A stretch of DNA of 64,000 nucleotides. It comes from an uncultured Candidatus Rokubacteria bacterium (lineage in GTDB: Bacteria > Methylomirabilota > Methylomirabilia > Rokubacteriales > DASRDR01). Shown here one piece after another: positions 9,325 to 29,907 of the stretch (position 1 is its first letter; every line of letters starts with the position of its first letter). The DNA lies in assembly GCA_963805625.1 (NCBI GenBank), contig CAWDVE010000010.1, positions 1,056,001-1,120,000 of the forward strand, in the 5' to 3' direction. Made by a program: the position numbers and the translations under genes. A model generated the notes under the pieces. It had not been told where the DNA came from and did no database searches. It worked only from the letters and a program-made list of their open reading frames with translations.

Positions 9325-11370
9325 TCAGCGTGACTTGCGCCCGAGGGCGGCGAGCGAGGCCTCGGCCTCGTCGAGCTCCACCGTGCTCGGCGGCGTCCCG
9401 CCGAACCGCGCGCGCTCGTAGAGCGTCGTCACGCGCGTGAACGCCGCACCGGCCGCCGGCCCGAGATCGAAGACGCGGCCGCTGAACTCCCGCGCGGTCT
9501 CGCCGGTGGCCGGGCGGAGACCCCGCCGCGCCGCGGCCCGGAGAGCGCGTCGGTAGAAGCCGGGTGGGCGGCTCCGCGTCGAGCCGAGCCCGCCCCGACG
9601 GTGACACCAGGCCGCCCACGCGCCAACGGCGCCGACCGCCAGGACGATGGCCAGGGCGCCCGCGCGGCCCAGGCGAGTCCGCGTCTCCGGATCGAGCCCG
9701 GCCGACCAGCCGCGAAGCCTCGCCAGCCGGAACTGCACCGACTGGACGGCTCGGATCTGGTCGTGGAGCGTCCAGTTCACCACGTAGCGGTGCCACTGGA
9801 GCCGGAGAGAGTCGAGGTAGAGGAACGCCGGCGTCCGGTCCGCGAGCACGTCGACGGTCGCCCGCGGCGTCGGGTCGAAGGTCACCCAGCCCCTGTCGGG
9901 AACGTACGCCTCGACCCAGGAGTGCGCGTCGTAGTACCGGACGATGTAGTACTGGCCGTACGGGTTCCACTCACCGCGCTGGAAGCCGTTGACGACCCGA
10001 GCCGGGACGCCAAGGCTCCTGAGCATCACCGCCATCGCCGCCGCGAAGTACTCGCAGTGGCCGGCACGGCGGACGAAGAGGAACTCCTGGAGCGGATCCA
10101 GCTGGCTCACCCGCTCGATGTCGAGGGTGTAGCGGAACTGGGTCCGCAGGAAGGCCTCCACGCGCCGGGCAATCTCCGACGGCGTCCGGCTCGTGCCCGC
10201 GACCTGTCGCGCGAGCGCCGGGATCGCCGGCGCCAGCACCGGGAGCTGCAGGTAACGCTCGAGCTGAACGTCGTCGAGGGGCGGCGCCAAGCGCGCGAGG
10301 GCCGCGCTCCGCACCGACGGGCCCTCCACCTCGGACTCGACCGTGTACCGGAGCCGGGCGCCGGGGGACGCCGTGGACAGCGCGCCCATGTCGTCCATCG
10401 CCAGCACCGAGGTGGCCATCGACAGGCGGAGGACCCGCGCGGCCGCGAACACCACCTCGGAGCCGATCGGCTCGAGGAAGATCTCCTGGCGCAGGAACAG
10501 GCCGCTCCCCCGCAGGAGACCGACGTCGAAGCCGCCCGAGCTTGGCTTGACCAGACGCGTCTGGCGGGGATACCGGACGCTCCAGGCCTGCCCGTCGAAG
10601 GTGTCCAGCACGACGCCCCGCCAGCGAAGGTTAGGGTACCGGTCGGGCTCGACCTCGTCGGGCAGGTGCACGCGCATGACGACGTTCGAGTCTGTGAGGA
10701 TGCGTCCGTACGACCCGAGCTCCACCCGCTCGGAGAAGCCGGTCATCATCTGACCGAGGCGCGCGCGGAGCGGCAGGGTCGCCAGCCCCACCCGCGGCAA
10801 CAAAAAGAAGAGGCCCCCCGCCACCAGGAACACCGACACGGCCGCGACGCTCGCCAGCACGGTCACGTAGCGCGTGGGCACCGCCTCGGTCCCCGCCGGA
10901 AGTCCGGTGTGACTCTCGCTCACAAGGTGCTGGAGGAGCGCGATCCAGCTGAGCAGCCCGACGAAGGCGACGAACGTGAAGAGGAACCCCACCCCGAACG
11001 CCGACCCCGAGGCCGCGACGAGCATGAAGAACGCGAGGAACGTGACCGTGCGCGAATCACGGACGCTCTGGAGCGTCGCGAGCTTGTAGAGCACCAGGAA
11101 GAGCAGGAGCCTCACCAGGGCGTCGAAGACGCTGTCGGCGAGGTAGGCGATGTCCACCACGGAGGCCAGCGCCGCGAGGGGAACGAGGACCCGGCCGCCC
11201 ACCAGGCGCCCGGCCCCCGACCGCGGCTGGAGGAGCCAGGCCACCACGAGGAGCACCGCCACGAGCAGGACACCGCGCGAACCGAGGAACTCGGCCAGGT
11301 AGAGGGCGAACAGGCCGTCCGCGACGAGAAGGTAGAGCGTGATCCGGAGGGCCAGCGGCACCATCATCAC
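9325..11370 (-). CDS. Transglutaminase TgpA-like membrane protein (DUF3488 + transglutaminase + DUF4129)
   Basis: Multi-TM N-terminus; GHCEYFA, DAHSWVE and WVTFDPTP catalytic triad motifs. Start overlaps the DUF58 stop. Confidence 0.9.
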   Translation of the reverse strand: MMMVPLALRITLYLLVADGLFALYLAEFLGSRGVLLVAVLLVVAWLLQPRSGAGRLVGGRVLVPLAALASVVDIAYLADSVFDALVRLLLFLVLYKLATLQSVRDSRTVTFLAFFMLVAASGSAFGVGFLFTFVAFVGLLSWIALLQHLVSESHTGLPAGTEAVPTRYVTVLASVAAVSVFLVAGGLFFLLPRVGLATLPLRARLGQMMTGFSERVELGSYGRILTDSNVVMRVHLPDEVEPDRYPNLRWRGVVLDTFDGQAWSVRYPRQTRLVKPSSGGFDVGLLRGSGLFLRQEIFLEPIGSEVVFAAARVLRLSMATSVLAMDDMGALSTASPGARLRYTVESEVEGPSVRSAALARLAPPLDDVQLERYLQLPVLAPAIPALARQVAGTSRTPSEIARRVEAFLRTQFRYTLDIERVSQLDPLQEFLFVRRAGHCEYFAAAMAVMLRSLGVPARVVNGFQRGEWNPYGQYYIVRYYDAHSWVEAYVPDRGWVTFDPTPRATVDVLADRTPAFLYLDSLRLQWHRYVVNWTLHDQIRAVQSVQFRLARLRGWSAGLDPETRTRLGRAGALAIVLAVGAVGAWAAWCHRRGGLGSTRSRPPGFYRRALRAAARRGLRPATGETAREFSGRVFDLGPAAGAAFTRVTTLYERARFGGTPPSTVELDEAEASLAALGRKSR

Positions 11371-17121: not shown

Positions 17122-18033
17122 ATGACCAAAGGTGAGATCGGATTCGTGGGGCTCGGCCGGATGGGGCTCCCCATGGCCCGGAACCTGGCCGCGGCCGGCT
17201 ACCGCGTCCACGTCCACGACGTCGCCCTGCCGGCGATGGAGCGCGCGGCTCGAGCGGCGGGGGTCGTGCCCCACGCCTCGGCCGGCGAGGTTGCGGGCGC
17301 GTCGGCCGTCGTGTTCACGGCCCTCCCGAACGATGCCATCGTGCGGGAGACCTACCTCGGCCCGGCGGGCCTCCTCGCCGGGGGTCGCCCCGGCCTCGTG
17401 ACCTGCGACTGCTCCACCGTTAGCCCCGGCGCCACGCTGGAGGTCCACCAGGCGGCGAAGGCCCGCGGGATCCATCACCTCGACACGCCGATGCTGGGGT
17501 CGTCGCCCCAGGCCGAGTCGGGCGAAATCTTCTTTATGGTCGGGGGTGACGCGGCGCAGATGCCGGTGATCCAGCCACTCCTCGACGTGATGGGGCGCCT
17601 CACCATGCACGTCGGGCCGGCGGGCACTGGCAACCGGATCAAGCTCCTCCACAACGCGCTGGGCGCGGTGAACGCGGTCGCGGTGGCCGAGTCGCTCGCG
17701 CTGTGCGACGCGGTCGGCGTCGACCCGCGGACCTACTACCAGGTGGTGAAGAACGGCGGCGGCATGGCCTACTCGACCTACTTCGACCGGCGGGTGCTGC
17801 GGGTGGTCGACGGGAACTACGACCCCACATTCACGCTCGATCTGATGCTCAAGGACGTGACCCTCGCCAGCGAGATGGCCGGGGACCTCCTCTCTAAGCT
17901 GCCGATCCTCCGCGAGACGCTGGCGGCGTACGCGGAGGGTCAGCGGCGCGGTGCCGGGCCGGAGGACTTCTCGGCGGTCACCCACGTCCTCGAGGGCCGC
18001 CTCGGCCACCGCCTCTTCGAATCCACGCCCTGA
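17122..18033 (+). CDS. NAD(P)-dependent oxidoreductase, 3-hydroxyisobutyrate dehydrogenase family
   Basis: GFVGLGRMG.PMA.NL, DCSTV, KLLHN, F.L.LMLKD motifs. Confidence 0.9.
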   Translation: MTKGEIGFVGLGRMGLPMARNLAAAGYRVHVHDVALPAMERAARAAGVVPHASAGEVAGASAVVFTALPNDAIVRETYLGPAGLLAGGRPGLVTCDCSTVSPGATLEVHQAAKARGIHHLDTPMLGSSPQAESGEIFFMVGGDAAQMPVIQPLLDVMGRLTMHVGPAGTGNRIKLLHNALGAVNAVAVAESLALCDAVGVDPRTYYQVVKNGGGMAYSTYFDRRVLRVVDGNYDPTFTLDLMLKDVTLASEMAGDLLSKLPILRETLAAYAEGQRRGAGPEDFSAVTHVLEGRLGHRLFESTP

Positions 18034-18045
18034 TTTCAAACTCCG

Positions 18046-18233
18046 GGGTCAGACCCCGATTTTGGCGTTCGGCACCGAGGTATCCAGTCTCACACTTGGG
18101 GGCCTGACCCCGGTTTTGGTTTCCCTCGGGGTCAGGCCTTGACTTCCCTACACTTCCCGACGCAACGCGAGATGCATGGAAATCAATTGCCTGACCCCGA
18201 GCGAGCCTCGATCAACGCCGGCGCTTCCGTATC
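18046..18233. repeat. Direct repeat copy A (about 190 bp; two REP-like hairpins plus a gene-end segment)
   Basis: Aligns by eye to 18736-18924 with scattered mismatches and indels. Contains GGGGTCAGACCCC...GGGGCCTGACCCC and GGGGTCAGGCCTTGACTTCC...GGAAATCAATTGCCTGACCCC. Confidence 0.92.
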
Positions 18234-18613
18234 ATCGCCGGCGTGACCGAGCTTGTGATGCCCACTCCGAGGCTCACCTCGAAGAGGGCGTTGCGTGCCG
18301 CGGACTGCTCGGCCACACCCGCGACGGTCTTCTGGTCCTCCGTAACCGCGATGAACCTGCCGTTGGCGTCGGGCCCGACGCGCTGGCCGCTGGTCACGGC
18401 GTCGCCGGCGAGGCATCTGTACGTGCCGATCACGCCGATGTTGCCCGAGTCCCCGTCACGGATGTCCTCGAGCGCCACGCCGTAGAGCACGTCGGTGTCT
18501 GCGGCGCAGGGCGCGATCCCGCCATCCGCGGAGAGCTTCACGGCGAAGCCCTGCTTGATTGTGGAGCCCGTCGTGTTCTTCTTCCGCTGCGTCAGGACCA
18601 GGAACTCTGCCAT
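18212..18613 (-). CDS. Phage capsid cement/decoration protein-like (DUF2190-like)
   Basis: 133 aa, Gly/Ala/Val-rich beta pattern (VLYGVALED...AGDAVTSGQRVGPDANGRFI...VAGVA) typical of DUF2190. AGGAG RBS. Confidence 0.7.
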   Translation of the reverse strand: MAEFLVLTQRKKNTTGSTIKQGFAVKLSADGGIAPCAADTDVLYGVALEDIRDGDSGNIGVIGTYRCLAGDAVTSGQRVGPDANGRFIAVTEDQKTVAGVAEQSAARNALFEVSLGVGITSSVTPAMIRKRRR

Positions 18614-18655
18614 GGTGGTTTCTCCTGTTTGCTCCGGGAGTTAGCGGCGCACGCC

Positions 18656-18735
18656 TCAGTGGGCCGCGCTCAGGTTCACGAAGGGCCCCTCGCGCTTCGC
18701 CTCACACGCGAGCTCGAAGACGGTGTCGTAGTCGA
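18656..18735 (-). pseudogene. 3' end of a truncated gene, possibly a phage protease/scaffold
   Basis: LDYDTVFELACEAKREGPFVNLSAAH* is cut off at repeat copy B and lies immediately upstream of the cement-like gene. Confidence 0.35.
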
Positions 18736-18924
18736 GGGTCAGACCCTGATTTTGGCGTTCGGCACCGAGGTATCCAGTCTCAAACTCGGGGTCTAGCCCC
18801 GGTTTTGGTTTCCCTCGGGGTCGGCCTTGACTTCCGTACACTTCGCGACACGCGACGCGAGATGCATGGAAATCAACGCCTGACCCCGAGCCGGGGCTTC
18901 GATCAGCGCAGGCGATTCCGCATC
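18736..18924. repeat. Direct repeat copy B
   Basis: Homologous to 18046-18233 at an offset of about 690 bp. Includes the last codons of the 176-aa gene. Confidence 0.92.
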
Positions 18925-19433
18925 GACACGTCGGCTTGTGACACAACCTGGGAACGGAACTGTTCCTGAGAGCGGAACTGTTCCTGGGATCTCGACGCCG
19001 AGGAGAACGTCGCCTCGATCAGGATGTCGTTGAGTGTCCCGGAGCAGGGGTCCAGCCGCAGCAACACGTCATCCTTGTCGTAGTCCCAAAACATGACCCC
19101 CGTCTCCCAGAAGACGTTCCGTGCGACCAGGCCGGTTTCGTCCATCGTGGACGGGCCATGGGCCACGGTCCCGGCTATGGCGTTCGTGACAGGAGTCCCG
19201 TCACCGTGCACGAGGAAGATGGCCGGTCTCGGCAGGTTGTAGAAGCTGCCCTCGAAGGTGAAGGCGTAGATCCGAGCCAGCTTCGGCTTGTCAGAGCCGG
19301 CGAACTTGAGCTGTTTGAGGAGGAAGCCGCTATCGCCCTTACCCGTCCCATACGACGACGAGCTCAGCGTCACGTCGTCCAGCTTTCGACCATACAGCTT
19401 GACACTCGATTCGCTCAGTAGGGTCTCTGCCAT
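18903..19433 (-). CDS. Hypothetical 176-aa protein with C-terminal tandem RSQEQF repeats; candidate YcaO/TfuA substrate or precursor
   Basis: GGAGG RBS; last gene of the YcaO-TfuA operon; 18-bp tandem repeat at 18948-18992. Confidence 0.8.
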   Translation of the reverse strand: MAETLLSESSVKLYGRKLDDVTLSSSSYGTGKGDSGFLLKQLKFAGSDKPKLARIYAFTFEGSFYNLPRPAIFLVHGDGTPVTNAIAGTVAHGPSTMDETGLVARNVFWETGVMFWDYDKDDVLLRLDPCSGTLNDILIEATFSSASRSQEQFRSQEQFRSQVVSQADVSMRNRLR

Positions 19434-19469
19434 GTCACACCTCCCTCAGCGTGTCCGCGATTGTGTCGG

Positions 19470-20744
19470 TCAGGGTGATCGCACAATTCCACCGCGGTCG
19501 CGGCGCGATGGGGCGAGCGACCTGGCGATGGGGCCGGGCCGAATCTCGCGCCAGGCGAAGCTCTCCCAGATGAGCCGCGCGAACCTGCCTCCCGTCAGGT
19601 AGCGGTCAACAGCTAACAATGCGTCGAGGACGTCAAAGTAATTGAGGTAGAGCGGCGACAGCCGTCGCCATACGTGCGCGAGCCCAGTTCCGAGATAGTC
19701 ACGCGTCTGCTGGAGCACCACCTTAAACGCTTCATGCCGGCCGTCGTAGGCAGCGGCGAACCGAGCCTCGATCTCTGGGTCGTCCACGGTGACTCCCGAG
19801 ACCCGGCCCGACGCGCGGTCCAGGTCGGCGCCGATGAGCCCAGCGTCGACGAGGAACTGCTGGTACACGTCAACGAAGATGTCGAAGATGGCACCCGTCA
19901 GCGGCTGAGACAGATCGTGGAGCGCGCACGAGATGTTCTCGACTCTGGAGACGTCTTCCACGTCAGACATGCACAGATCGTTGTCGGCGATCCGGATCTG
20001 GGCGGTCTCCGACAGTTCGCCGATACGGTTCAGCTCGCTCAGGTAATAGAGGTTGCCGGCGGAGCGTCGGAGAACGTGATCGAGCACCGCATGAAAGTGC
20101 AGGCATCCCACAAGGGCAACCAGGTCGGCGAAAGACTCGTGAAAACCGAAGAATTGATCGGTCCGAGCGTCCGGCGGGGGGGTTCCGACTTCCGAATAGA
20201 TCAGGAGGTGCCCCACCTCGTGGGCGAGCACGTCGAAGTTCTGCCAGTGGAGGCGCGGCACACCTCGCTCGTCCAGAGCATATCCAACCTCGATGAAGCC
20301 GAACCCGGACTGGGCATTCGCCCAGTCGATGTAGGGTATGAGCTCGAGGCGATTGTGGGTTCGTCGGAAATGCCACTCGATCCGGTGGCCAGCGTAGGCC
20401 TCCCAGATGTCCAGGACGCGCCGAACCGTCGCGTACATGTGTGCGGACCGGAATTCGGGACTGTCGACCTCCAGATGGTCGAAGTGCCCATCCGGGCCGG
20501 ACAAGGTGGGCGGAAAGGCGGGGCCGACGTATGGCGGCAAGTAGGGGAAATCGTAGGGACCGGGCTTTCCGATCGCGTCGACCACGTACATGCGCTCATC
20601 GGCGGGACCCGGCGCGATCGTCCCCGGTGCTCGAGCGATCCACACCCTCTCCGGCTCACGGAACGCCGCGAGCGCAGGGTCTTGCGCGAATAGCCAGAAT
20701 CGGGTGCCGCGTCCGAGGGTGATCGGGTCCCAGTGAGAGGTCAC
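19470..20744 (-). CDS. Zinc metallopeptidase, gluzincin (M4/M36-like), no evident signal peptide
   Basis: NA, DVLAHEVGH (HExxH), downstream FHESFAD (ExxxD), and a later H..S...TGA.FD segment. Confidence 0.8.
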   Translation of the reverse strand: MTSHWDPITLGRGTRFWLFAQDPALAAFREPERVWIARAPGTIAPGPADERMYVVDAIGKPGPYDFPYLPPYVGPAFPPTLSGPDGHFDHLEVDSPEFRSAHMYATVRRVLDIWEAYAGHRIEWHFRRTHNRLELIPYIDWANAQSGFGFIEVGYALDERGVPRLHWQNFDVLAHEVGHLLIYSEVGTPPPDARTDQFFGFHESFADLVALVGCLHFHAVLDHVLRRSAGNLYYLSELNRIGELSETAQIRIADNDLCMSDVEDVSRVENISCALHDLSQPLTGAIFDIFVDVYQQFLVDAGLIGADLDRASGRVSGVTVDDPEIEARFAAAYDGRHEAFKVVLQQTRDYLGTGLAHVWRRLSPLYLNYFDVLDALLAVDRYLTGGRFARLIWESFAWREIRPGPIARSLAPSRRDRGGIVRSP

Positions 20745-20747
20745 GCC

Positions 20748-22124
20748 TCACTCCTCGGGGTTGCGCGTGATACCGTCGGGCGTGTCGCCCCGCGTCACGT
20801 GGATCCATTCACGCCAGAGCGCCCGGTAGAACGACCCCGTGTCGGGGAAGCCGATGTCCACCGCGTGCTGCGCGATGTCATCGGGTACCGGGACGCCGAG
20901 GCGTTTCTCGAAGTACCAGAGCGTCAGCTCGAACTTCGTGCGCTCGTCGAGCTGATCCTCGACGGGGTCCGCTCCGGCCCGCGCGCGCCGCTTCATCCGA
21001 GCCCGCGCCGCGTAGCGCGTGTAGTCACCCCGGACGCGGAGATCATCCAGGAGATGGGCCTCGGCTCGTGGTCGGGCCAGCGCCTCCAGCTGCTCGATCC
21101 GCGCCTCCTCGTCGATCAGCCGGCCAAAGCTGGCGGGCGTGAGGTCGTTCTCTGCCAACCAGCGGTCGAGCGCTCCGCCGCCGAACAGGCCTAGGCGGCG
21201 CCGCAGTCTCGCAGCCGCCCGACGCCGAGCCTCATCGCTGGGCGCGAGCCCCTCCGACTCGCACTCTCGCAGCGTCGCCATCCGCATCAACCCCGCCCGT
21301 CTGGCCTCCACGTAGGCCCGGCCGTCCAGACGAAGCTCGTCGAGCAGCATTTCTGGCTCGAGCTCCAGTCGCTCGAAGTCCTGGGTGGCCCGGTTCCACA
21401 TCGCGCTCGCCTGGAACACGTATTCGACCCGAGCCGGCGGAGGATCGCCGACGAGAAAGTCCCTCATGGTCGTCAACATGGCAAGCGCGTCCAGCCGCTT
21501 CTGGTTGATAGACCCAGTCGGTAGCCAAGCGCGAAGCGCGTCGAGGTCCGTGACCGCGAGACCATGCTTGGCGCCGCAGGCCAGAAGCCGCTGGTACGAA
21601 CGATCGGGATAGAAGAGCTCCTTCGCGAGCCGGACGAGCATATCCCGGATGGTCGCCGAGACGACCCCCGCCTCCTGGGCTGATGCTAGCGTGCATCGGA
21701 TGTTGACCATGGCTTCGGAGAGGGGAACGAAGCCAACCTCGGCCGCACCGTGAACCACTGCGACCTCGTCGTCGTCTTCGAACGCCTCTGCCTGATAGGG
21801 CGCGAGGCTCCCGTCGCGATAGGCCTCGAAGATCCGGCCTATCCCCTTCATGCCGAATGCCGCGAGCTCGGCCGCTCGCAGAGCACCCATGCTTGCGCTC
21901 CCGAAGACATGGACACCCTGGGCCATCGCCCACAGAATTTCCTTGTGCCAGACGGATGGAACCTGCTGGAAATAGCCGTCGATGATGCCCAGGGCACGAG
22001 GTCGATGATGCGCGACCGCCCGATACACGTCTCCCTGCTGCGCCGGAGGCAGATAGACGGCATCCAGCACAGACCTCGCATCCGATACAGGGAGCGTGGG
22101 TCCGGTGAATACGCAGGTCGTCAT
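20748..22124 (-). CDS. tfuA: TfuA-like protein with C-terminal helical extension
   Basis: VFTGPT, PPAQQGD, IDGYF...SVWHKEIL, GSASMGALRAAEL, EDDDEVAV.H, LSEAMVNIR, QKRLDA. Overlaps the YcaO stop (ATGA). Confidence 0.93.
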   Translation of the reverse strand: MTTCVFTGPTLPVSDARSVLDAVYLPPAQQGDVYRAVAHHRPRALGIIDGYFQQVPSVWHKEILWAMAQGVHVFGSASMGALRAAELAAFGMKGIGRIFEAYRDGSLAPYQAEAFEDDDEVAVVHGAAEVGFVPLSEAMVNIRCTLASAQEAGVVSATIRDMLVRLAKELFYPDRSYQRLLACGAKHGLAVTDLDALRAWLPTGSINQKRLDALAMLTTMRDFLVGDPPPARVEYVFQASAMWNRATQDFERLELEPEMLLDELRLDGRAYVEARRAGLMRMATLRECESEGLAPSDEARRRAAARLRRRLGLFGGGALDRWLAENDLTPASFGRLIDEEARIEQLEALARPRAEAHLLDDLRVRGDYTRYAARARMKRRARAGADPVEDQLDERTKFELTLWYFEKRLGVPVPDDIAQHAVDIGFPDTGSFYRALWREWIHVTRGDTPDGITRNPEE

Positions 22125-23473
22125 GCCAGCCGACCACTCACGGCGCGGGCCCGCGGCCCTGGCACGTACTTGCCGCGCTCGCCGTCGTCGAGTCCCTCCA
22201 GGCCGGGGATTAGGACCCGAACGACCGGTATGCCCAGCTCCGGCTTGGTCAAGTTCACCGCGACGACTTGCCGAATCCCCACGGCGCGGAGATGTTCCAG
22301 AGCCCAGGTCACATCCTCGTCGAGACTATCCTGGTCGCGAGTGGGCACGTCGTGAAAGTCGCCGGTGGCCGTGTCGGCCGCCATCAGGCTGCGACATTCC
22401 TTCAGGCGTCGAGCGCGCTGCGCCGGCGTGTAGTCCTCTGCCCAGAAGTCGTCGCGGGAGCCAGCGATGTAGGTGGTGCGAGCCTGAGCGGCCTCGGTCA
22501 GCGCGCGGAGCAGAGCGATACCGCGCGCGGGATGGCAGCCGGCGGCGAACTCAGGGTCGGCGCCATCGTCGTCCCGCCCGAGCACCAGGCAGGTGAATGA
22601 CGCGATGCCGACATCGGAGGTGGTGTCCCACACCTTCACGGCAATGTCGGCGCGCGCGAACTGGTCGAGCACCCAGCGACATGCGTCGTCGTTGACAGTC
22701 TCGAGGTCCAGCGCGCGCCGTGACCTCCGGGGCGTGTGCTTCCACAACGCGCTCGCGTCGCGCTCGATCACCTCGTGTATCCCATGGCTGATGGCTTCGA
22801 GCATGTGGTTGCCTGATGCGAGCCCGTTCGTGTTAGCGAGAAAGCACCCGTGCGCGGGGCCACGAGGCATCGTGTAGTCCGTATGCACTAATTCGTATGG
22901 CACCCAGCACGGAGACTGGCTGATGAGATCTTCGCCCTCGATCCACAACAATGGCTCATCGTCGGTATAGGAGCTCGTCTTGGCGCGTGGGAGTGCGGCC
23001 ACGTCGATCAGGGGATGAGTGCGCCCGAGCTCGCGATACGTCCCTAGCTTGAGAGAGGAGGTGATGGTCTCGGCGTGAAAAGTCTCGACCGCTTCCATCA
23101 GCCCGGATGCCTTGGCCGCGGCCAGGTCCAGACCCTTGCCTTGGGACACGGCGATGGAACGAGAGTTCGGTCGGCAGACCATGACAACCGGGACACCGAT
23201 CCGATCGAGGCCGGTGATGTTGGCGACGCGGGTTATGCCCATCTGGGAGGCAAGCGGCCCGATTCGTTTCAGCGTATCCGCCGGGGCCACCGTTCGGTGG
23301 GTCCCGAGACGATGGGCCTTGACGGCTTCAGCGGTCGGTGTCGCGGCAGTTGAGCAGCCCCCTCCGAAGTGACCGGTCCCGTCCCCCTCCGCGCGCTGGG
23401 CACCACGAACGGCAGTCGTGGACGACCGGGGCAGGCCCGCTGCGGACTGGGGGCTCAAGTCAGGATCGTCCAT
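22121..23473 (-). CDS. ycaO: YcaO-like protein (TfuA-associated, thioamide-forming type)
   Basis: GITRVANITGLDRIG, SQGKG, ASGLMEAVE, NTNGLASGN, EVIERDA, RALTEAAQAR..IAGSRDD, VVRVLIPGLE. Start uncertain (ATG 23473). Confidence 0.93.
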   Translation of the reverse strand: MDDPDLSPQSAAGLPRSSTTAVRGAQRAEGDGTGHFGGGCSTAATPTAEAVKAHRLGTHRTVAPADTLKRIGPLASQMGITRVANITGLDRIGVPVVMVCRPNSRSIAVSQGKGLDLAAAKASGLMEAVETFHAETITSSLKLGTYRELGRTHPLIDVAALPRAKTSSYTDDEPLLWIEGEDLISQSPCWVPYELVHTDYTMPRGPAHGCFLANTNGLASGNHMLEAISHGIHEVIERDASALWKHTPRRSRRALDLETVNDDACRWVLDQFARADIAVKVWDTTSDVGIASFTCLVLGRDDDGADPEFAAGCHPARGIALLRALTEAAQARTTYIAGSRDDFWAEDYTPAQRARRLKECRSLMAADTATGDFHDVPTRDQDSLDEDVTWALEHLRAVGIRQVVAVNLTKPELGIPVVRVLIPGLEGLDDGERGKYVPGPRARAVSGRLA

Positions 23474-23486
23474 TGCGCCCCGCTCA

Positions 23487-26400
23487 CTAGGAGGTCGTCC
23501 CGGGTGCGGGAGTGGGAGCCAGCTCTTCAAGCAGCGCGCGTGCCTCGAGTAGGTCGACCGTGTCGAAACCCTCCCGGAACCACTCATAGACGGGGACCAG
23601 CAACCCACGTGCAGCAGCGTGTCGATCTCGTCGACGCTCGAGCATAGCCAGACTCATGGCCGCTCTCAGTTCGAGCGCTCGGGCCTTCTGCTGGCAGGCA
23701 ACTGACAGAGCCCTACGGAACTCGGCTTCCGCCTCGCTGACCCGCGGAGGCGACAACGCCAGGAGGGCCTCCCCTCGGCTCCGGTGGAGCTCCGCAGTCC
23801 AGTAGCACAGCCCCATCTGTTCCGTCTCGGCGAAAGCCTCGTCGAGCATGTCCAAGGCCAGCTCCGGCTGGCCTGCCTTGACGCACGCGGTGGCGAGCAT
23901 CTCCCTCAGGATCGGGAAGTCCTCGCCAGTGACCATGGCCTTCAGCTCGTCGAGTCCTTGACGCATATATTCGATGCCGCGCTCGGGCTCGCCCAGCTCG
24001 GCCAGCGCCCAGCCCTGGAACACCGTGCCCTTGACCCGATAGGCCGGGAATCCGTGGGCCTCCGAGTACTGGATGAGCTCATCGGCGCGGCCCTGGACGG
24101 TCCAGGCGTCGCGGCGATAGCGGTGCAGTAGCAGGCTCATGTCGAGCGCGTGTACGAGCGAGCCCGCATGCGCGAGACGGCGCGCCCACACCATCGCCTC
24201 CCCGCCCGCCGCGAGCGCCTGATCCGGGAACCCGAGCAGCCACAGCGAGAACGCGCGCTCCCCCGCCCCGCACACCTTCGGGTCGTGCCCGCCGTAGACC
24301 GCCACGTGGGCGCGGTAGTTTCCGGCGTCATACAGGCGCACGCCCTCGCGGACGTGCTCACAGCACTCTTCGTGCCGGCCCAGGTGGAACAGACTGGCCC
24401 AGAGACAGTGGTGGGCTTGAAGACTGAGGCCAGGGTCGCCCAGCCCGTCGGCCAGTGTCAGCAGTTTCTGCCCTATCTCGAGTCCCGTCTCGAAGCGTTC
24501 GGAGATACGCCATGCACCCCACATCGCGGTGAAGTGCTGGGGGGAGTCGGGGAGAGAAGAACAAAGCTCCAAGGCCCGGGCATAGGTCTGCGCCACCTCG
24601 ATCGTCCGCGGCCCTTTCGTGTTGATGAGCACGGGGCCCAGCGTGAGGAGCAGGTCGAGCTCCCCCCGTCGACGTTCGGTCGTTTCAGGAAGAGTGGCGA
24701 GGAGATCCAGCCCCTTCTTCAGGTGGGAGATCGCCTCCACGTTCGCTGACCGCTCACTCGCGCGTCGTCCGGCCAAGTGCCGATAGTGGAGTGCCTTCGG
24801 ACCGAGATGGGCCTCCGTGCAATGATGCGCGACCAGTTCAGGGCTCGCCTCCAGCGTCTCCGGAAACTGGGTCTCCAGCACCTCGGCGATCCGCGCATGG
24901 AGCGCCTGGCGCTGGGTGAGCAGGAGGCTTCCGTAGGCCGCGTCCTGGACGAGCGCGTGCTTGAACGAGTAGGTCGCACGGGGCGCTGTACCGTCGCACA
25001 GTATGAGCTGCGCGTCGACGAGCTCGTCGAGCGCCGCGTCCAGCTCGGTGTCTGGCATAGACGCTACCGCGGTTAGCAGCTCGTACGAGAATTGGCGTCC
25101 GATCGCGCTCCCGATCTGGGCAACCTTCGGGCCGGAAGCGAGCTGGTCAAGGCGCGCCATTAGTGAATCGTGGAGCGTCGCCGGGATCGCGAGAGGCGGA
25201 ATGGCGCCGGTGAGCTCGTACCGGTCTTCGTGTTCCTGGACCAGCCCGGATTCGAGCACCGTCTTCGTCAGCTCCTCGATGAATAGCGGCACGCCGTCCG
25301 TCTTGGTGACGATGTGCTGCAGGATCTGCTCGGGCAGGGACTTTCCGTTGGCCACCCGCCGCGCGATCTCGGCCGCTTCCGTCGGACTCAGCCGGTTCAA
25401 GGTGCAGCGCGTGACATGGGGCTGCCTGGGCCATTTTGGCGCGTAGCTCGGTCGGCAGGTGATGACCGCCAGCATCCGCTGGCTCCCGGCACGCTCCACG
25501 AGGACATCGAGCCACTCCTGCGAGGTGGGGTCGATCCAGTGCACGTCCTCGAACACCAGGAGCAAACCCGGCTCCTTGGCGAGACCCTCGACCAGGCTCT
25601 GAAGTGCGGCCAGTGTCTGTTCTCGTCGACGCTGCTGCGTCACGCCGACTGGCGCATAGCGATCTCCCGTCGAGACAGAGACGAGAGGGGCGAGCAACGG
25701 GACCATCGTCTCAACAGGGTGGCCGCACTGAGCAAGCAGCGCCTCGAGCCTCGCCAGCTTCCGCTCCATCGAGTCCTCACGCTCGAACTCGGCGAGGCGT
25801 TCCAATGCGGTACCGAGCGGGTAGAGTGCACTGTTTGCGTGATGTGGCGAACACTGGAGCAAGACGACTCGCTGCGGCTCTTGCGCGATCTGCTCTCCGA
25901 GATTCTGGATGATTCGAGACTTTCCGATCCCCGGCTCGCCGCTCAGCAGCACCACTTGCCCCTGACCGCTCATGGCATCGTTCCATCGCCGCATGAGAAG
26001 ACCGAATTCTTCCTTCCGGCCGACGAGCGGCGTGAGGCCGGCAGGGTGCGCGGCTTCGAATCGGCTCAGGGTCTCGTTCAGGTGCATGACCCGCCAAACC
26101 CGAATCGGGCGGGACATGCCCTTCAGGGTAGCGAAGCCAAGGTCCTCGCATACGAATCGGTCCCCGACCAGATGACGTGTTTCGTCGGTGATTACCACGG
26201 CGTTCGGGTCCGCCGCGGCCTGCAGGCGCGCCGCGAGATTCAGGGTCTCCCCGACCAGACCGGCCTCCTCCCCCGGGCGCCCGCCAGGAGAATCACCCGC
26301 GACCACCAAACCCGTCGCGATTCCCACGCGAACCGCCAGCTGGATGTTCGCAGCACCGATCGGCACCGGCCGAAGCTCCCTCACGGCTTCCACGATCCCA

Positions 26401-26876
26401 AGACCCGCCCGCACGGCACGCTCAGCATCATCTTCGTGCGCCATCGGATACCCGAAGTTCGCGAGAATGCCGTCACCGAGATACTGTGCGACGTGACCAC
26501 CAAACCGCCGGACTACGGAGGAGCAGGTGGTCAAATAGGTTCGGATGAGCCCCCGGAGGTCCTCTGGATCCAACTGGCCCGATATGGAAGTGGACCCGAC
26601 AAGGTCGGCAAACAGGACGGTCACACGTCTTCGCTCGGCCTGACGCGCCCCTGGGGAGACGCTGCGTGGATTCTGGGTAGCCGTGGACGGCGACCGATCC
26701 GGGGGCATGGGTGAGCCAAGGCCGTGAGCGAGCACGGCGCCACATTCCCCGCAGAACTCGAAGTGCGTTGGGTTCTTGAAGCCGCAGGCGGGACATGCGT
26801 TCCTCAGCAGCCGGCCACACCCGCCACAGAACCTCGACGAATCCGGATTGTCGAACGCACAGGCGGCGCACTTCAA
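23487..26876 (-). CDS. Double zinc ribbon + class III adenylate/guanylate cyclase + AAA/STAND-type ATPase + TPR-like protein
   Basis: Four CxxC pairs; FADLVGST, YLGDG, VRVGIATG, NLAARLQ; Walker A GEPGIGKS; Walker B FEDVHW; helical C-terminus. TTG start at 26876 after AAGGGGG. Confidence 0.92.
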   Translation of the reverse strand: MKCAACAFDNPDSSRFCGGCGRLLRNACPACGFKNPTHFEFCGECGAVLAHGLGSPMPPDRSPSTATQNPRSVSPGARQAERRRVTVLFADLVGSTSISGQLDPEDLRGLIRTYLTTCSSVVRRFGGHVAQYLGDGILANFGYPMAHEDDAERAVRAGLGIVEAVRELRPVPIGAANIQLAVRVGIATGLVVAGDSPGGRPGEEAGLVGETLNLAARLQAAADPNAVVITDETRHLVGDRFVCEDLGFATLKGMSRPIRVWRVMHLNETLSRFEAAHPAGLTPLVGRKEEFGLLMRRWNDAMSGQGQVVLLSGEPGIGKSRIIQNLGEQIAQEPQRVVLLQCSPHHANSALYPLGTALERLAEFEREDSMERKLARLEALLAQCGHPVETMVPLLAPLVSVSTGDRYAPVGVTQQRRREQTLAALQSLVEGLAKEPGLLLVFEDVHWIDPTSQEWLDVLVERAGSQRMLAVITCRPSYAPKWPRQPHVTRCTLNRLSPTEAAEIARRVANGKSLPEQILQHIVTKTDGVPLFIEELTKTVLESGLVQEHEDRYELTGAIPPLAIPATLHDSLMARLDQLASGPKVAQIGSAIGRQFSYELLTAVASMPDTELDAALDELVDAQLILCDGTAPRATYSFKHALVQDAAYGSLLLTQRQALHARIAEVLETQFPETLEASPELVAHHCTEAHLGPKALHYRHLAGRRASERSANVEAISHLKKGLDLLATLPETTERRRGELDLLLTLGPVLINTKGPRTIEVAQTYARALELCSSLPDSPQHFTAMWGAWRISERFETGLEIGQKLLTLADGLGDPGLSLQAHHCLWASLFHLGRHEECCEHVREGVRLYDAGNYRAHVAVYGGHDPKVCGAGERAFSLWLLGFPDQALAAGGEAMVWARRLAHAGSLVHALDMSLLLHRYRRDAWTVQGRADELIQYSEAHGFPAYRVKGTVFQGWALAELGEPERGIEYMRQGLDELKAMVTGEDFPILREMLATACVKAGQPELALDMLDEAFAETEQMGLCYWTAELHRSRGEALLALSPPRVSEAEAEFRRALSVACQQKARALELRAAMSLAMLERRRDRHAAARGLLVPVYEWFREGFDTVDLLEARALLEELAPTPAPGTTS

Positions 26877-26924
26877 GCCGAACCCCCTTCTTCGGGCAGC
26901 CGGCCTACTGAGGAGGTGGCGGTG

Positions 26925-26953
26925 ACAGTAAGGCAGCCACGGCAGCTTGTCAA
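26925..26953 (-). promoter_or_regulatory. sigma70-type promoter of the cyclase-YcaO-TfuA operon
   Basis: Minus strand reads TTGACA-17 nt-TACTGT, about 50 nt upstream of the TTG start. Confidence 0.65.
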
Positions 26954-27043
26954 GTCGACGTCTCACTATCGTCGCACGTTCCCATCGCCGTTTGGGATCA
27001 ATGGTGTCACGTCGACCCCGAAGACTGATGCGACTGCGACCGA

Positions 27044-27057
27044 TGATTCATGAATCA
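27044..27057. promoter_or_regulatory. Perfect 14-bp palindrome TGATTCATGAATCA, putative operator
   Basis: AT-rich perfect palindrome about 90 bp upstream of the -35 box. Confidence 0.4.
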
Positions 27058-27121
27058 AAAAGGCCTCCAATGCGATCCCTGCTCATCCCAGCAATCCGCC
27101 GCGCCAAGCCCCAGCGTATGA

Positions 27122-27140
27122 AAGTCAAAGTCTGACCCCC
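27122..27140. repeat. Single arm of the REP-like element (AAGTCAAAGTCTGACCCC)
   Basis: Matches the right arm of the 28495-28579 element. Encodes the GVRL* end of the M48-like gene. Confidence 0.75.
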
Positions 27141-28444
27141 ATCCGCTCGATGCGGGCGAGACGGCGCTTGAGCGTGGGGTGTAGGCCCATGAGTAGGCCC
27201 TCGCGCTCGGTGAACGTCCCGCGCTGGGCCCGCTGCCCGGTGGTCTCCACGATGAAAAGGTGCGCGACCCCCTCGCCGCCCGGGATCACCGCGCCGGTCT
27301 CTCCCAGGTGCTGGAGCCCGCGATAGAGCCCAGTCGGGTTGCGGGTGAGCTGGACCGCCGTCGCGTCGGCGAGGTAGCGCCGGCTCCGCCAGAGCAGGCC
27401 CACCGGTAGGCTCGCGAACAGTAGGAGGAAGCCCGTGGCGGCCGTGGCGAAGGCGAGCAGCGCGAGGAGCGGCGGGCAGATGCGGACGAGGATGCTCCCC
27501 AGCCGGCCGAAGTACTCGCGACCGAGTCCTGCCACCGGGTCGTCCCCGCCGCCCCCGGCCCCGAAGCGCTGCCGGTGCTCTCTGAGAAGCTGGATCAGCG
27601 CTCGGGCCCGTTCGGCCCGCGACTCCGGCGACTGGAATGTGCTCCGCAAGGGAAACGTGAACCACCGCCAGGCGACCCGCCGCGGAAGCCGCGCGAACGG
27701 AGCCAGGATGACGACGATCAGAAGCTCGAGCACATAGAGGAGCGAGTGAATCTGGGCCGCGCCTCGGAGATCCCCGTTCCCAATCGAGCCGATCAGATGA
27801 GCGAGGAGGCCCTCGGTCTCCTCGCGATCGAACTCGTCCAGGAGCCGCCGGCCGACGACGACGTAGCTCTCCGTCAGGTCCGTCCCGACGGCCGCGGCGT
27901 TCGCCACCTTGGCGTCGAGGAGACGCACCTCGGGTGCCGGGATCCCGGCGGCGATCGCCATCTCCTGGACCACGTTGACGAGCTGACGCTCCTCCAGGTC
28001 CCCGGCCACAGGTGGTCGGGCGCCGATCGCGAGGAGAGTGTGCCCCACCCCTGCCGCGCGCCACACCGACCGCACCGTCAGCCAGCACACGAGCGGGAGG
28101 AGGAAGCCGATCACCCAGACCGCGTCGCCGTCGCCCGGCAGGAGGCTCGGCAGCCGGCCCACGACCCCGAGCGGGGCCAGGCCCACGTCCCAGCTGGGGT
28201 GCGCGAGACCGGCTGTCGCAGGGCTCAGGAGCGCGAGCGCGCCGATGCCGAGGCAGAGCACCGCGGGAATGAAGACGAGGGCGAAGAGGACCAGGAACAC
28301 GTTGGCGACGAAGCCCACCGCGGACACGAAGCCGCACCCGCCCACGACCAGCGCGTAGGCGAGCGTCAGACGCCACGTCGCCCGGCGGTTCCGGGCCTGG
28401 AACTCGAAGAAAGGCGTGCGCTCGGTCGGGCGGGTCTCGGCCAT
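27125..28444 (-). CDS. M48/HtpX-like membrane protein with degenerate HExxH
   Basis: FFEFQARNRRAT, L.NVVQEMAIAAG, NAAAVG, EGLLAHLIGSIGNGD, YLADATAVQLTRNP, HP....RL. Confidence 0.82.
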   Translation of the reverse strand: MAETRPTERTPFFEFQARNRRATWRLTLAYALVVGGCGFVSAVGFVANVFLVLFALVFIPAVLCLGIGALALLSPATAGLAHPSWDVGLAPLGVVGRLPSLLPGDGDAVWVIGFLLPLVCWLTVRSVWRAAGVGHTLLAIGARPPVAGDLEERQLVNVVQEMAIAAGIPAPEVRLLDAKVANAAAVGTDLTESYVVVGRRLLDEFDREETEGLLAHLIGSIGNGDLRGAAQIHSLLYVLELLIVVILAPFARLPRRVAWRWFTFPLRSTFQSPESRAERARALIQLLREHRQRFGAGGGGDDPVAGLGREYFGRLGSILVRICPPLLALLAFATAATGFLLLFASLPVGLLWRSRRYLADATAVQLTRNPTGLYRGLQHLGETGAVIPGGEGVAHLFIVETTGQRAQRGTFTEREGLLMGLHPTLKRRLARIERMGVRL

Positions 28445-28494
28445 GTCCGGCTCCGCGCGATGATCGCGCCGACACCAAGGTCGCGCAAGCCGCC

Positions 28495-28579
28495 GGGGTC
28501 AGACTTTGACCTCCCGACATTTCTCACGCGCGGGCGGCGAGCGTGCGCTCGAATTGTCAGGAGGTCAAAGTCTGACCCC
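28495..28579. repeat. REP/MITE-like inverted repeat element
   Basis: GGGGTCAGACTTTGACCTCCCGACA ... TGTCAGGAGGTCAAAGTCTGACCCC, near-perfect arms of about 25 bp. Confidence 0.9.
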
Positions 28580-28605
28580 GGCATGCTACCCTCGCGGTCA
28601 CCTCC

Positions 28606-29907
28606 ATGGACACGCCGCCGACCAGCCTTCTTGCCCGCCTTCGCGACGAGTTCCCCGACTCGTCGGGCCGGCGCCTGCGCGCCTGGCTGGTGGCCGGCCG
28701 GGTGCGCGTGGGCGGCGAGATCGTTCGCGATCCGCGGACGCCCGTGGCCGCGGCCGATCGGATCACGCTCGGCCCGGCGCCGCCTCCCGCCCTCGCCGCG
28801 CCGCTCCGCCTGGTCCACGAGGACGAGTCGCTTCTCGTCATCGAGAAGCCGGCGGGGCTCCTCACGATCGGGACCGAGCACGAGCGGGAGCGCACGGCCT
28901 ACCGCATGGTGTGGGCCTATCTCAAGGGAGCGCGCCCCTCCCGCCGGCCGTTCATCGTCCATCGGTTGGATCGGGAGACCTCGGGCCTCCTGGTCATCGC
29001 CAAGACCCCGGAATCGAAGCAATACCTCCAGGCGCAGTTCTTCTCGGGCACCGCGGAACGGCGGTACGTCGCGATCGTCGAGGGTGTGGTGATGGCGAAC
29101 GAGGGAACGCTCCGCGACATCCTCGTGGAGGAGCGCTCGCTTCGCGTCAGGCCCGCCGATCCAACCCGGCCTCCGCCGAAGGGCCGGCGCGCGCGCATCG
29201 CGATCACCCGGTACCGCGTGATCGAGCGGCGAGCGGACGTGACCCGGGTGGCGCTCCAGCTCGGCACGGGCCGGCGTCATCAGATCCGCGTCCAGCTGGC
29301 GAAGCTCGGCCACCCGGTCGTCGGCGATGGCCGTCACGGCGCGCGCCGGGATCCGCTCCGCCGCTTGTGTCTTCACGCCACGCGACTCGGCTTCCGCCAT
29401 CCCGACACCGGGGTGCCGGTCCAGTTCGACAGCGCGCCTCCCGCCGCGTTCGCCAGCCTCGGGCGACCGGCAGATCGCCCGTCGCCGCCCCCTGCCTCCC
29501 GCCCGGAACGTCATGTGCGCGATACGATCCGCCGGCCCGCACAGCCCGGGCGGCGGCCGCCGCGCGCCGGCTCGGCACCGAGGCCATCGTGGGCGGAGCG
29601 GAGCTCGCCACCTCCAGCGCCCGGCCCGGGACGTGACGCGCGCGACGCGATCCGCCGGCCCCCCCAGCCCGGGCGGCGGCCACCGCACTACGGCCCTCCG
29701 CCAAAACCATCGTCGGCAGGACGCCGGTCACCACCCCCCCCGCCCGGCCCGGAGCGTGACGCGCGCGACGTGATGCGCCGGCCCGCACAGCCCGGGCGCC
29801 ACGCGATCCGCGGCGGCCCCGGACAGCCAGGGTGGTGGCCGCCGCGCGCCGGCACGGCGCCAAAGCCATGGCCAAGGGAACGACCACCGCGCCGACCCCC
29901 GCGTTGA
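28606..29907 (+). CDS. RluA/RluD-family pseudouridine synthase with Pro/Arg-rich repeat tail
   Basis: S4-like N-terminus, EKPAGL, VHRLDRETSG, TGRRHQIRV, GHPVVGD, LHA motifs. Confidence 0.9.
   Translation: MDTPPTSLLARLRDEFPDSSGRRLRAWLVAGRVRVGGEIVRDPRTPVAAADRITLGPAPPPALAAPLRLVHEDESLLVIEKPAGLLTIGTEHERERTAYRMVWAYLKGARPSRRPFIVHRLDRETSGLLVIAKTPESKQYLQAQFFSGTAERRYVAIVEGVVMANEGTLRDILVEERSLRVRPADPTRPPPKGRRARIAITRYRVIERRADVTRVALQLGTGRRHQIRVQLAKLGHPVVGDGRHGARRDPLRRLCLHATRLGFRHPDTGVPVQFDSAPPAAFASLGRPADRPSPPPASRPERHVRDTIRRPAQPGRRPPRAGSAPRPSWAERSSPPPAPGPGRDARDAIRRPPQPGRRPPHYGPPPKPSSAGRRSPPPPPGPERDARDVMRRPAQPGRHAIRGGPGQPGWWPPRAGTAPKPWPRERPPRRPPR
29502..29815 (+). repeat. 123-bp tandem repeat (about 2.5 copies) in the RluA tail
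   Basis: Units start at 29502, 29625 and 29748 and encode P(E/G)R..RD..RRP.QPGR. Confidence 0.85.

Follow-up and report, generated by a model that had tools for sequence, protein, structure and literature searches.

In NHLP/Nif11-leader RiPPs, a protein-sized leader precedes a hypervariable C-terminal core, and a C39/PCAT exporter forms part of the system. Nif11-type TfuA clusters are mentioned in PMC8120280, a survey of proteobacterial clusters whose main text is without cyclases or repeats; its supplementary cluster figures may depict clusters of the kind described below. For the YcaO-TfuA pair, the described chemistry is that YcaO uses ATP to activate a backbone amide, while sulphur from a ThiS-type carrier is delivered by TfuA (PMC13063428, PMC13174530). 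Four known YcaO-TfuA classes are set out in PMC13174530 together with that paper's own, and none of them, as outlined there, matches the system described below. Cyclases, YcaO and TfuA also occur in PMC8939145, where the passages concerned mention them only beside ATP-grasp enzymes. Thiovarsolin from Streptomyces varsoviensis (VarA/VarY/VarT) is derived from a repeated-core precursor (PMC6511847). A literature search, mostly outside subscription journals, returned no paper describing the operon considered here.

This study examined a 64,000-nucleotide stretch (the window) of an uncultured Candidatus Rokubacteria bacterium (assembly GCA_963805625.1, contig CAWDVE010000010.1), in which a YcaO-TfuA operon ends in a gene for a protein with a short tandem-repeat tail. 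Combined, the results make it rather probable that this protein is a multi-core precursor that is thioamidated by YcaO/TfuA and cut by the protease of the operon, in the manner of thiovarsolin but with a folded leader.

The repeat-tailed gene

The operon consists of tightly packed genes on the same strand, in the order STAND-type class III cyclase, YcaO, TfuA, HExxH..E metalloprotease and the repeat-tailed putative precursor (P0001), a member of an unnamed family recognized from its ORF and homologs. The P0001 gene (18903-19433, minus strand) encodes 176 residues and is preceded, on direct reading, by a GGAGG ribosome-binding site at 19440-19444 (minus), 6 nt ahead of the ATG. Residues 1-148 (18990-19433, minus) form an N-domain predicted to be folded, beta-rich with a closing helix according to AlphaFold2 and the conserved residues, which is likely a recognition or leader domain; it is followed by the putative cores, an RSQEQF tandem of 2.5 copies at residues 148-162 (18948-18992, minus), and by degenerate final units with a basic end (VVSQADVSMRNRLR; 18906-18947, minus). 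In the translation of the minus-strand ORF, the C-terminal end of P0001 is SASRSQEQFRSQEQFRSQVVSQADVSMRNRLR / SRSQEQFRSQEQFRSQVVSQADVSMRNRLR. The 15 codons at 18948-18992 read RSQEQF RSQEQF RSQ, with copies that differ silently at third positions; TRF reported an 18-bp unit at 18947-18986 (2.2 copies, score 66), and none of 200 shuffled tails reached the periodicity score of the real one. Exact terminal tandems, defined by a unit of at least 6 aa within the last 40 residues, are rare, occurring in 4 of the 10,960 ORFs of at least 150 aa across all frames of the source genome. The gene is regarded as real on the strength of its relatives, namely 40 homologs at 34-69% identity in a word search and 605 clusters (at 50% identity) in a profile search at E<=1e-3.

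The AlphaFold2 model of P0001, built from 147 sequences, has a mean pLDDT of 77, with blocks at 65-95 within residues 1-140 and a value near 49 in the tail; an earlier model from 41 sequences had a pLDDT of 67. An earlier note on this DNA had described the ORF, the RSQEQF tail and the 18-bp tandem with correct coordinates, and its impression of a folded-looking N-domain agrees with the predicted fold of residues 1-148. It had cited NHLP and Nif11 leaders as precedents; the N-domain is not of either kind, with no such match in Pfam (P0001) or NCBIfam (147 family members). P0001 was unmatched in Pfam (none at E<=0.1), NCBIfam, PHROG and PADLOC, Rfam gave 0 matches at E<=1 over 17500-28600, and promoter and terminator counts around the operon were no better than chance.

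Directly downstream of the P0001 gene lies a lone gene of phage-cement type (18212-18613, minus; PF09956, E 7e-10), set between direct repeats of about 160 bp (~18736-18900 and 18046-18202) that are 91% alike and have internal inverted arms. Within the source genome this long repeat is confined to this site; the arrangement of gene and repeats recurs in one metagenome contig (L132) and in 0 of the best 80 of the 229 genome loci. The precursor gene has another copy in the source genome, truncated at its 5' end and with an RSDLAA-type tail (L101:8042-8677; G000:C21:330374-330673). This copy is without YcaO, TfuA and protease, and its neighbours are an ORF resembling a primase/ATPase and repeat proteins of FG-GAP-like type (labels by eye).

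Operon partners in the window

The gene next to P0001 (19470-20744, minus) encodes a 424-aa zinc metalloprotease identified by motif and homologs, with HEVGH at residues 175-179, E203/D207 and no signal peptide. Residues H175, E176, H179, E203, D207 and H276 are invariant across 62 homologs, and the protein, which matches ACE, M36, M4 and M12B weakly, aligns with the ACE zinc site; it is predicted to be a gluzincin-type protease (HExxH plus downstream Glu, ExxxD) of no named family. A hydrophobic N-terminus was seen in 0 of the 62 protease homologs and 0 of the 147 precursor family members.

The tfuA gene (20748-22124, minus; PF07812, E 3e-45; solved relative 6XP8, E 3e-35) overlaps that of a stand-alone YcaO of about 400 aa with conserved Glu motifs (22121-23608, minus; PF02624, E 6e-82), whose true start is likely downstream of 23608 and whose nearest solved relative is MJ1094 (6PE3, E 5e-33), ahead of LynD (1e-20). 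Both Pfam domains score above cut-off, and the YcaO and TfuA scores are under the MCR-specific NCBIfam cut-offs (251<365 and 206<235). The ATP-binding motifs of YcaO are intact, with the Glu residues of MExxE and ExxxxxxExxERD present in 56-57 of 57 homologs, as are the motifs of TfuA (HKE His and Glu in 60/60, Lys in 55/60; SMGALR Ser in 60/60), whose conserved Lys and Ser are taken here to be catalytic. Six ThiS-family genes are present in the source genome, outside the operon.

At its C-terminus, the window TfuA carries a SurA-like, TIGR04500-related domain of about 220 aa (~20751-21416). These additional residues occur on most operon TfuAs and are absent from 7 of 7 stand-alone rhizobial TfuAs. 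Of 51 homologs, 33 have an extension that matches TIGR04500 (best E 4e-9, all under cut-off; in the window E 0.08 and 12 bits against a cut-off of 180), and SurA_N_3 and SurA N-domain look-alikes surface as leads. MirC, a TIGR04500 protein with a SurA-like chaperone domain, is described as required for synthesis of the graspetide rosaritide (PMC13097080); by way of this requirement and the TIGR04500 kinship, the extension points to peptide maturation.

The first gene (23487-26966, minus) encodes a 1159-aa protein with a Zn-ribbon, a class III nucleotide cyclase, a STAND ATPase and a TPR-like region, its true start likely being downstream of 26966. It scores 583 bits against TIGR03903, under the cut-off of 706. 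Both Asp residues and the N...R motif are kept and a Gln stands at the site that is usually Lys, these positions being presumed to be the known class III sites. PADLOC returned just the generic cyclase domain (PycC) and a weak mad8 match over the operon, and a defence system reading was dropped on this result. Amyloid-motif signalling, a further idea, was set aside, as by eye no tail-like repeat is present in the N-terminus of the window cyclase. An upstream M48 peptidase was found at 1 of the best 80 of the 229 genome loci and was placed outside the system.

The GC3 of the operon is 0.78-0.81 versus 0.90-0.94 in three flanking genes, and the precursor gene is present in 3 of 61 related genomes, the source genome counted; the operon is therefore likely an acquired island. 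Further upstream, a 123-bp tandem repeat (29468-29819; ~2.4-2.9 copies) lies in the Pro/Arg-rich tail of ORF 28606-29907, which by eye is pseudouridine-synthase-like.

Family and N-domain fold

Homologs of the precursor were found in 229 stretches of species genomes and 291 of metagenomes. Named hosts are mostly Alphaproteobacteria, and the cultured ones include Ruegeria, Leisingera, Skermanella and Alsobacter. Viral contigs held no homolog, and a phage origin of the family was rejected on that ground.

Profile comparison of P0001 with PDB sequences gave a best E of 0.15, and the best ESM Atlas score was 0.84, a lead only. For two P0001 models, Foldseek returned nothing at E<=1e-3 in PDB or BFVD and a VIA fold search gave best Z scores of 2.9 and 3.3, limited matches that do not prove the fold new. 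The best structural match was the GroES-like T4 Gp31 (Z 3.3, rmsd 8.5, 93 residues aligned); a profile comparison of the N-domain with 24 GroES sequences was negative (probability 0.2%) and lent GroES ancestry no support.

The first loop of the N-domain spans 34-260 residues and reaches at least 90 in 45 of 135 proteins. Among 14 long homologs that were scanned, 4 have a first loop matching families of phage head-decoration or fibre proteins (phrog_2647 at E 4e-12 in P0088); domains resembling phage head-decoration or tail-fibre proteins were noted in the loops of P0088, P0156, P0131 and P0038, with similar inserts in operon loci L075 and L078, and other homologs have helical or Pro/Thr-rich inserts there. 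A very divergent homolog (L214:4357-5577, minus) with 24 RAAMxx units also contains an acidic linker and one additional small domain; it belongs to a STAND-YcaO-TfuA-protease operon and shows that the family extends beyond the reach of the profile.

Repeat tails across the family

The tail survey covered 185 proteins, 181 of them with a readable tail. Tails were significantly repetitive in 153 of the 181, with periods of 4-10, 1.6-10 copies (median 4) and 103 distinct units; many of the 28 non-repetitive tails resemble a single unit and a few look frameshifted. At the genome loci, repetition was seen in 67 of the 76 tails that could be read, the pattern failing on 5 of 81. Copy number across the family is about 1-24. 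Repeat residues are 21% Gly, 18% Ala, 16% Ser and 12% Arg and are also rich in Val, with 0.1% Pro and no Cys, and units include SGAKV, SGAGV, GANL, GYNV, GANAR, GMNAR, SGAHARI, RADLSA and RSDLAA. The flanking Arg residues had been proposed in the earlier note as possible cleavage points; as Arg is missing from many units (e.g., the first four of these), cleavage at Arg does not hold for the family in general. In L004, L079, P0056 and P0119, the tail reads as a repeat in a shifted frame, through sequence error or a genuine frameshift.

What is conserved in the repeats is plainly the peptide and not the DNA, because silent sites between copies are saturated; a low non-synonymous rate was also obtained but, being circular, is given no weight here. 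Between neighbouring copies, 900 of 1454 same-residue codon pairs differ (62%) versus 936 (64%) expected if independent, these counts coming from related loci and hence not being independent of one another; within the window 4 of 9 pairs differ versus 4.6 expected. In the distant L214 homolog, 20 exact RAAMAS copies are encoded by 19 different DNA sequences. Recent DNA slippage as the source of the repeats was ruled out by the same saturation.

Conservation of gene order

Among the best 80 of the 229 genome loci, a protease gene lies upstream of the precursor gene in 75 (two of the five misses being contig ends), a cyclase gene is nearby in 74 (the remaining six being short contigs), TfuA is present at 57 and YcaO at 55, and a GNAT is encoded in 27, i.e. 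in 27 of the 59 TPR-cyclase loci. With 5 of the 80 excluded as cut short upstream, YcaO is present in cis at 55 of 75 informative loci. Among the best 80 of the 291 metagenome loci, some of which recur from the genome set, a protease was present in 56 of the 60 that extend 400 bases upstream, and YcaO plus TfuA in 16 of the 18 that extend 4.5 kb. A less biased sample took 251 genomes evenly across the class to which one rhizobial host belongs; 8 of them contained the precursor and 10 the protease, one of the latter being partial at the end of a contig. A homolog follows 10 of 10 full-length protease genes of this sample, one of them seen only on excising the region (E 3e-4), and YcaO plus TfuA precede 9 of 10, the centre genome included.

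The earlier note had asked for homologs with a conserved N-domain and a variable tail and had named, among the ways in which its proposal could fail, that homologs lack repeat tails or that they occur mostly without YcaO/TfuA. The proposal came through both, as the N-domain is conserved, the tails vary in unit and copy number, and most homologs stand behind YcaO-TfuA-protease. The expected company of YcaO and TfuA needs amending nonetheless: the constant partner is the protease and not YcaO. Comparison of the trees of the N-domain, the protease, YcaO and TfuA gave correlated distances (rho 0.62-0.76, the N-domain and protease forming the best pair), which, for sequence-derived distances, shows joint inheritance by shared descent and not binding.

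The conserved neighbours are the cyclase, the protease, the GNAT and a Crp-like regulator, and no transporter or exporter, C39 peptidase/ABC included, is conserved within 10 kb. By clustering, 9 of the best 80 of the 229 loci have a Crp/Fnr-type cNMP-binding regulator in the neighbourhood of the operon (loci noted: L003, L011, L018, L025, L035, L037, L038 and L062), and this regulator may read the product of the cyclase.

Two subtypes can be distinguished. The first comprises 16 loci, the window among them, and has a STAND cyclase upstream, R-x5 hexapeptides, a basic end (14/16) and no GNAT; the second has a cyclase-TPR protein, mostly 5- or 7-mers, an acidic end and the GNAT in part of its loci. 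Since the STAND/hexapeptide subtype forms a single clade on the protease tree, the match between cyclase type and tail type counts as one event. Co-evolution of the two types was not retained, there being a single independent pair only, nor was an association of GNAT with period 5 (two pairs, not significant). A distant operon with the same order of five genes (L090:3046-10123; L215:5384-12365, two genomes; L213) has a short TfuA and a short, single, unrepeated tail, and one rhizobial genome holds both this distant subtype and the YcaO-less type. At L046:2838-9578, a second YcaO-TfuA pair lies inverted between the protease and precursor genes.

YcaO is absent in cis from 20 of the 75 informative loci, 16 of which represent one rhizobial clade that keeps the cyclase, the protease and the repeats. 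TfuA was found elsewhere in 3 of 4 YcaO-less rhizobial genomes examined, in a separate YcaO clade, and YcaO was not found in 3 of 5 searched genomes with YcaO-less loci, whose assembly completeness is not established. The genome of L047 keeps the repeat tail, and neither YcaO nor TfuA was found in it. In L024, L026 and L078, only the precursor gene and the cyclase are still together, and two of these three genomes carry cognate enzymes elsewhere (L098, L212). In 14 of the 16 YcaO-less rhizobial loci, the precursor is followed by a protein of about 112 aa that matches nothing in Pfam or PHROG (L013-type loci, ~10560-10950, plus strand).

Proposed mechanism and alternative readings

In the proposed multi-core pathway, P0001 would be the substrate of YcaO/TfuA. 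Its folded N-domain would be recognized by the enzymes of the operon, the repeats would be thioamidated with ATP and ThiS-derived sulphur, and the TIGR04500-like TfuA extension may serve as a chaperone or substrate-delivery module. The protease would then release hexapeptide units, here of the RSQEQF type, and in the TPR-cyclase subtype the GNATs could acetylate the units. Several results count against a precursor: 20 of 75 loci are YcaO-less, 28 of 181 tails are non-repetitive, no exporter is conserved, and the domains inserted in the first loop would be dispensable to a mere leader.

As exporter and signal peptide are not conserved, it is tentatively proposed that the peptides remain intracellular and that the TPR/STAND cyclase reads them, thioamidation being a dispensable tuning step. 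The fullest version must be called somewhat doubtful: a widespread intracellular peptide-signal system in which a precursor whose folded leader has no known fold carries 1-24 lineage-specific peptide copies that YcaO/TfuA thioamidate, the GNAT acetylates in one subtype, the gluzincin releases and the TPR/STAND cyclase reads, giving a cyclic nucleotide.

Alternatively, P0001 could be a scaffold or regulator in its own right, with a tail modified in place or trimmed and a product other than a free peptide. A conserved fold of 148 residues, one loop of which accommodates entire inserted domains, speaks for such a role, as do the weak GroES-like topology (T4 Gp31, Z 3.3), which would suit an oligomer, the archaeal MCR-type enzymes that are the nearest solved YcaO and TfuA, the precedent for a YcaO reading a tertiary surface (PMC13063428), and the combination of YcaO action on folded proteins such as MCR and uL16 with the lack of an exporter here. 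A dedicated protease almost always adjoins, however, and exact short repeats whose unit and period are free to change across the family are the pattern of a multi-core precursor; with the GroES profile comparison negative (0.2%) and viral contigs without a homolog, the scaffold is judged unlikely. A protease-gated switch is less probable again. Here the tail would be a bait or timer, the protein would hold the cyclase or inhibit the protease until cleavage frees it, and thioamidation or acetylation would set the rate. The protease, precursor gene and cyclase are indeed the minimal set left after YcaO/TfuA loss (16 loci), and precursor gene and cyclase alone remain together in three loci (L024, L026, L078), but two of three reduced-locus genomes have cognate enzymes elsewhere (L098, L212); the joint change of cyclase type and tail type is one evolutionary event, and up to 24 exact copies suit stoichiometric product formation.

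Two readings concern the tail chemistry and shape. Cyclodehydration of repeat Ser/Thr to oxazolines by YcaO, or amidine formation, in place of thioamides is very improbable: Ser makes up 16% of repeat residues and LynD/TruD are detectable relatives (E 1e-20), but a TfuA with intact motifs adjoins nearly every YcaO locus, E1/ThiF partner and dehydrogenase are absent among the conserved neighbours, and the repeats are without Cys, several units also being without Ser/Thr (GANAR, GMNAR). That the tail is a structural element, a pentapeptide-repeat beta-helix, is hardly credible, given that period 5 holds in only 63 of 153 repetitive tails (periods 4-10, median 4 copies) and that the window tail has period 6, 2.5 copies, a pLDDT of about 49 and no PF00805 match, against which stand some tails that pass or near PF00805 and pentapeptide NCBIfam models that match up to 9 of the 147 members.

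As a multi-core precursor, the family is a substrate candidate for an extensive group of YcaO-TfuA clusters in proteobacteria. Its predicted core units, over 100 of them distinct, occur in cultured hosts, and precursor finders restricted to 20-120 aa (the RiPPER default described in PMC6511847) would overlook such proteins. If the cyclase link is true, orphan TPR/STAND cyclases would gain a ligand and thioamides a role in signalling, and the full peptide-signal system would tie RiPP chemistry directly to second-messenger signalling. The scaffold, if true, would extend the set of thioamidated proteins by one whose fold is unassigned.

Comparison with known systems

Of the features of a YcaO-TfuA thioamidated RiPP, those present are the adjacent ycaO and tfuA genes, their intact motifs and a co-travelling candidate precursor (55/75 loci; 9/10 in the even sample). 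Azol(in)e-forming YcaO systems differ, as the YcaO here is stand-alone, without an E1/ThiF partner or fusion and with no Cys to act on in the repeats, and the window tail is no pentapeptide repeat protein (PF00805), the period-5 A(D/N)Lxx run being absent. The NHLP/Nif11 RiPPs share the protein-sized N-terminal part before a hypervariable C-terminus and a TIGR03903-like cyclase fusion nearby, but here there is no leader match, no C39/PCAT exporter, and tandem exact repeats instead of one core. The MCR thioglycine system (MJ1094, 6PE3; TfuA, 6XP8) supplies the nearest solved enzymes, and uL16, as described in PMC13063428, is a precedent for in-place thioamidation of a folded protein and so for the scaffold; in contrast to both, the present operon co-encodes a repeat-tailed protein and a protease. 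As described for rosaritide, MirC/TIGR04500 likewise provides a SurA-like chaperone domain needed by a peptide-modifying enzyme (PMC13097080), whereas here the domain is fused to TfuA and, at 12 bits versus a cut-off of 180, is only a related one.

Thiovarsolin shares the arrangement of a stand-alone YcaO and TfuA beside a repeated-core precursor, here a putative one. As described in PMC6511847, its cores number one to five repeats, and many non-repetitive tails here resemble a single unit; its products are short and N-acetylated, and GNATs occur in 27 of the best 80 of the 229 loci here. By the same account, VarA is a short peptide found in a size range of 20-120 aa, whereas P0001 has 176 aa with a 148-aa folded domain, and thiovarsolin is without a dedicated protease, endogenous peptidases and an acetyltransferase being presumed, whereas the present operon encodes its own gluzincin. 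The TIGR04500-like TfuA extension and the cyclase are present here and are not thiovarsolin features, APR/GPR repeats are replaced by RSQEQF, with Pro at 0.1% of family repeat residues, and neighbours of the VarO/VarL/VarS/VarP type are absent. Because there is no APR/GPR core and no var accessory gene, and because the leader is folded and the protease its own, the system as reconstructed here would work like thiovarsolin but falls outside the thiovarsolin family.
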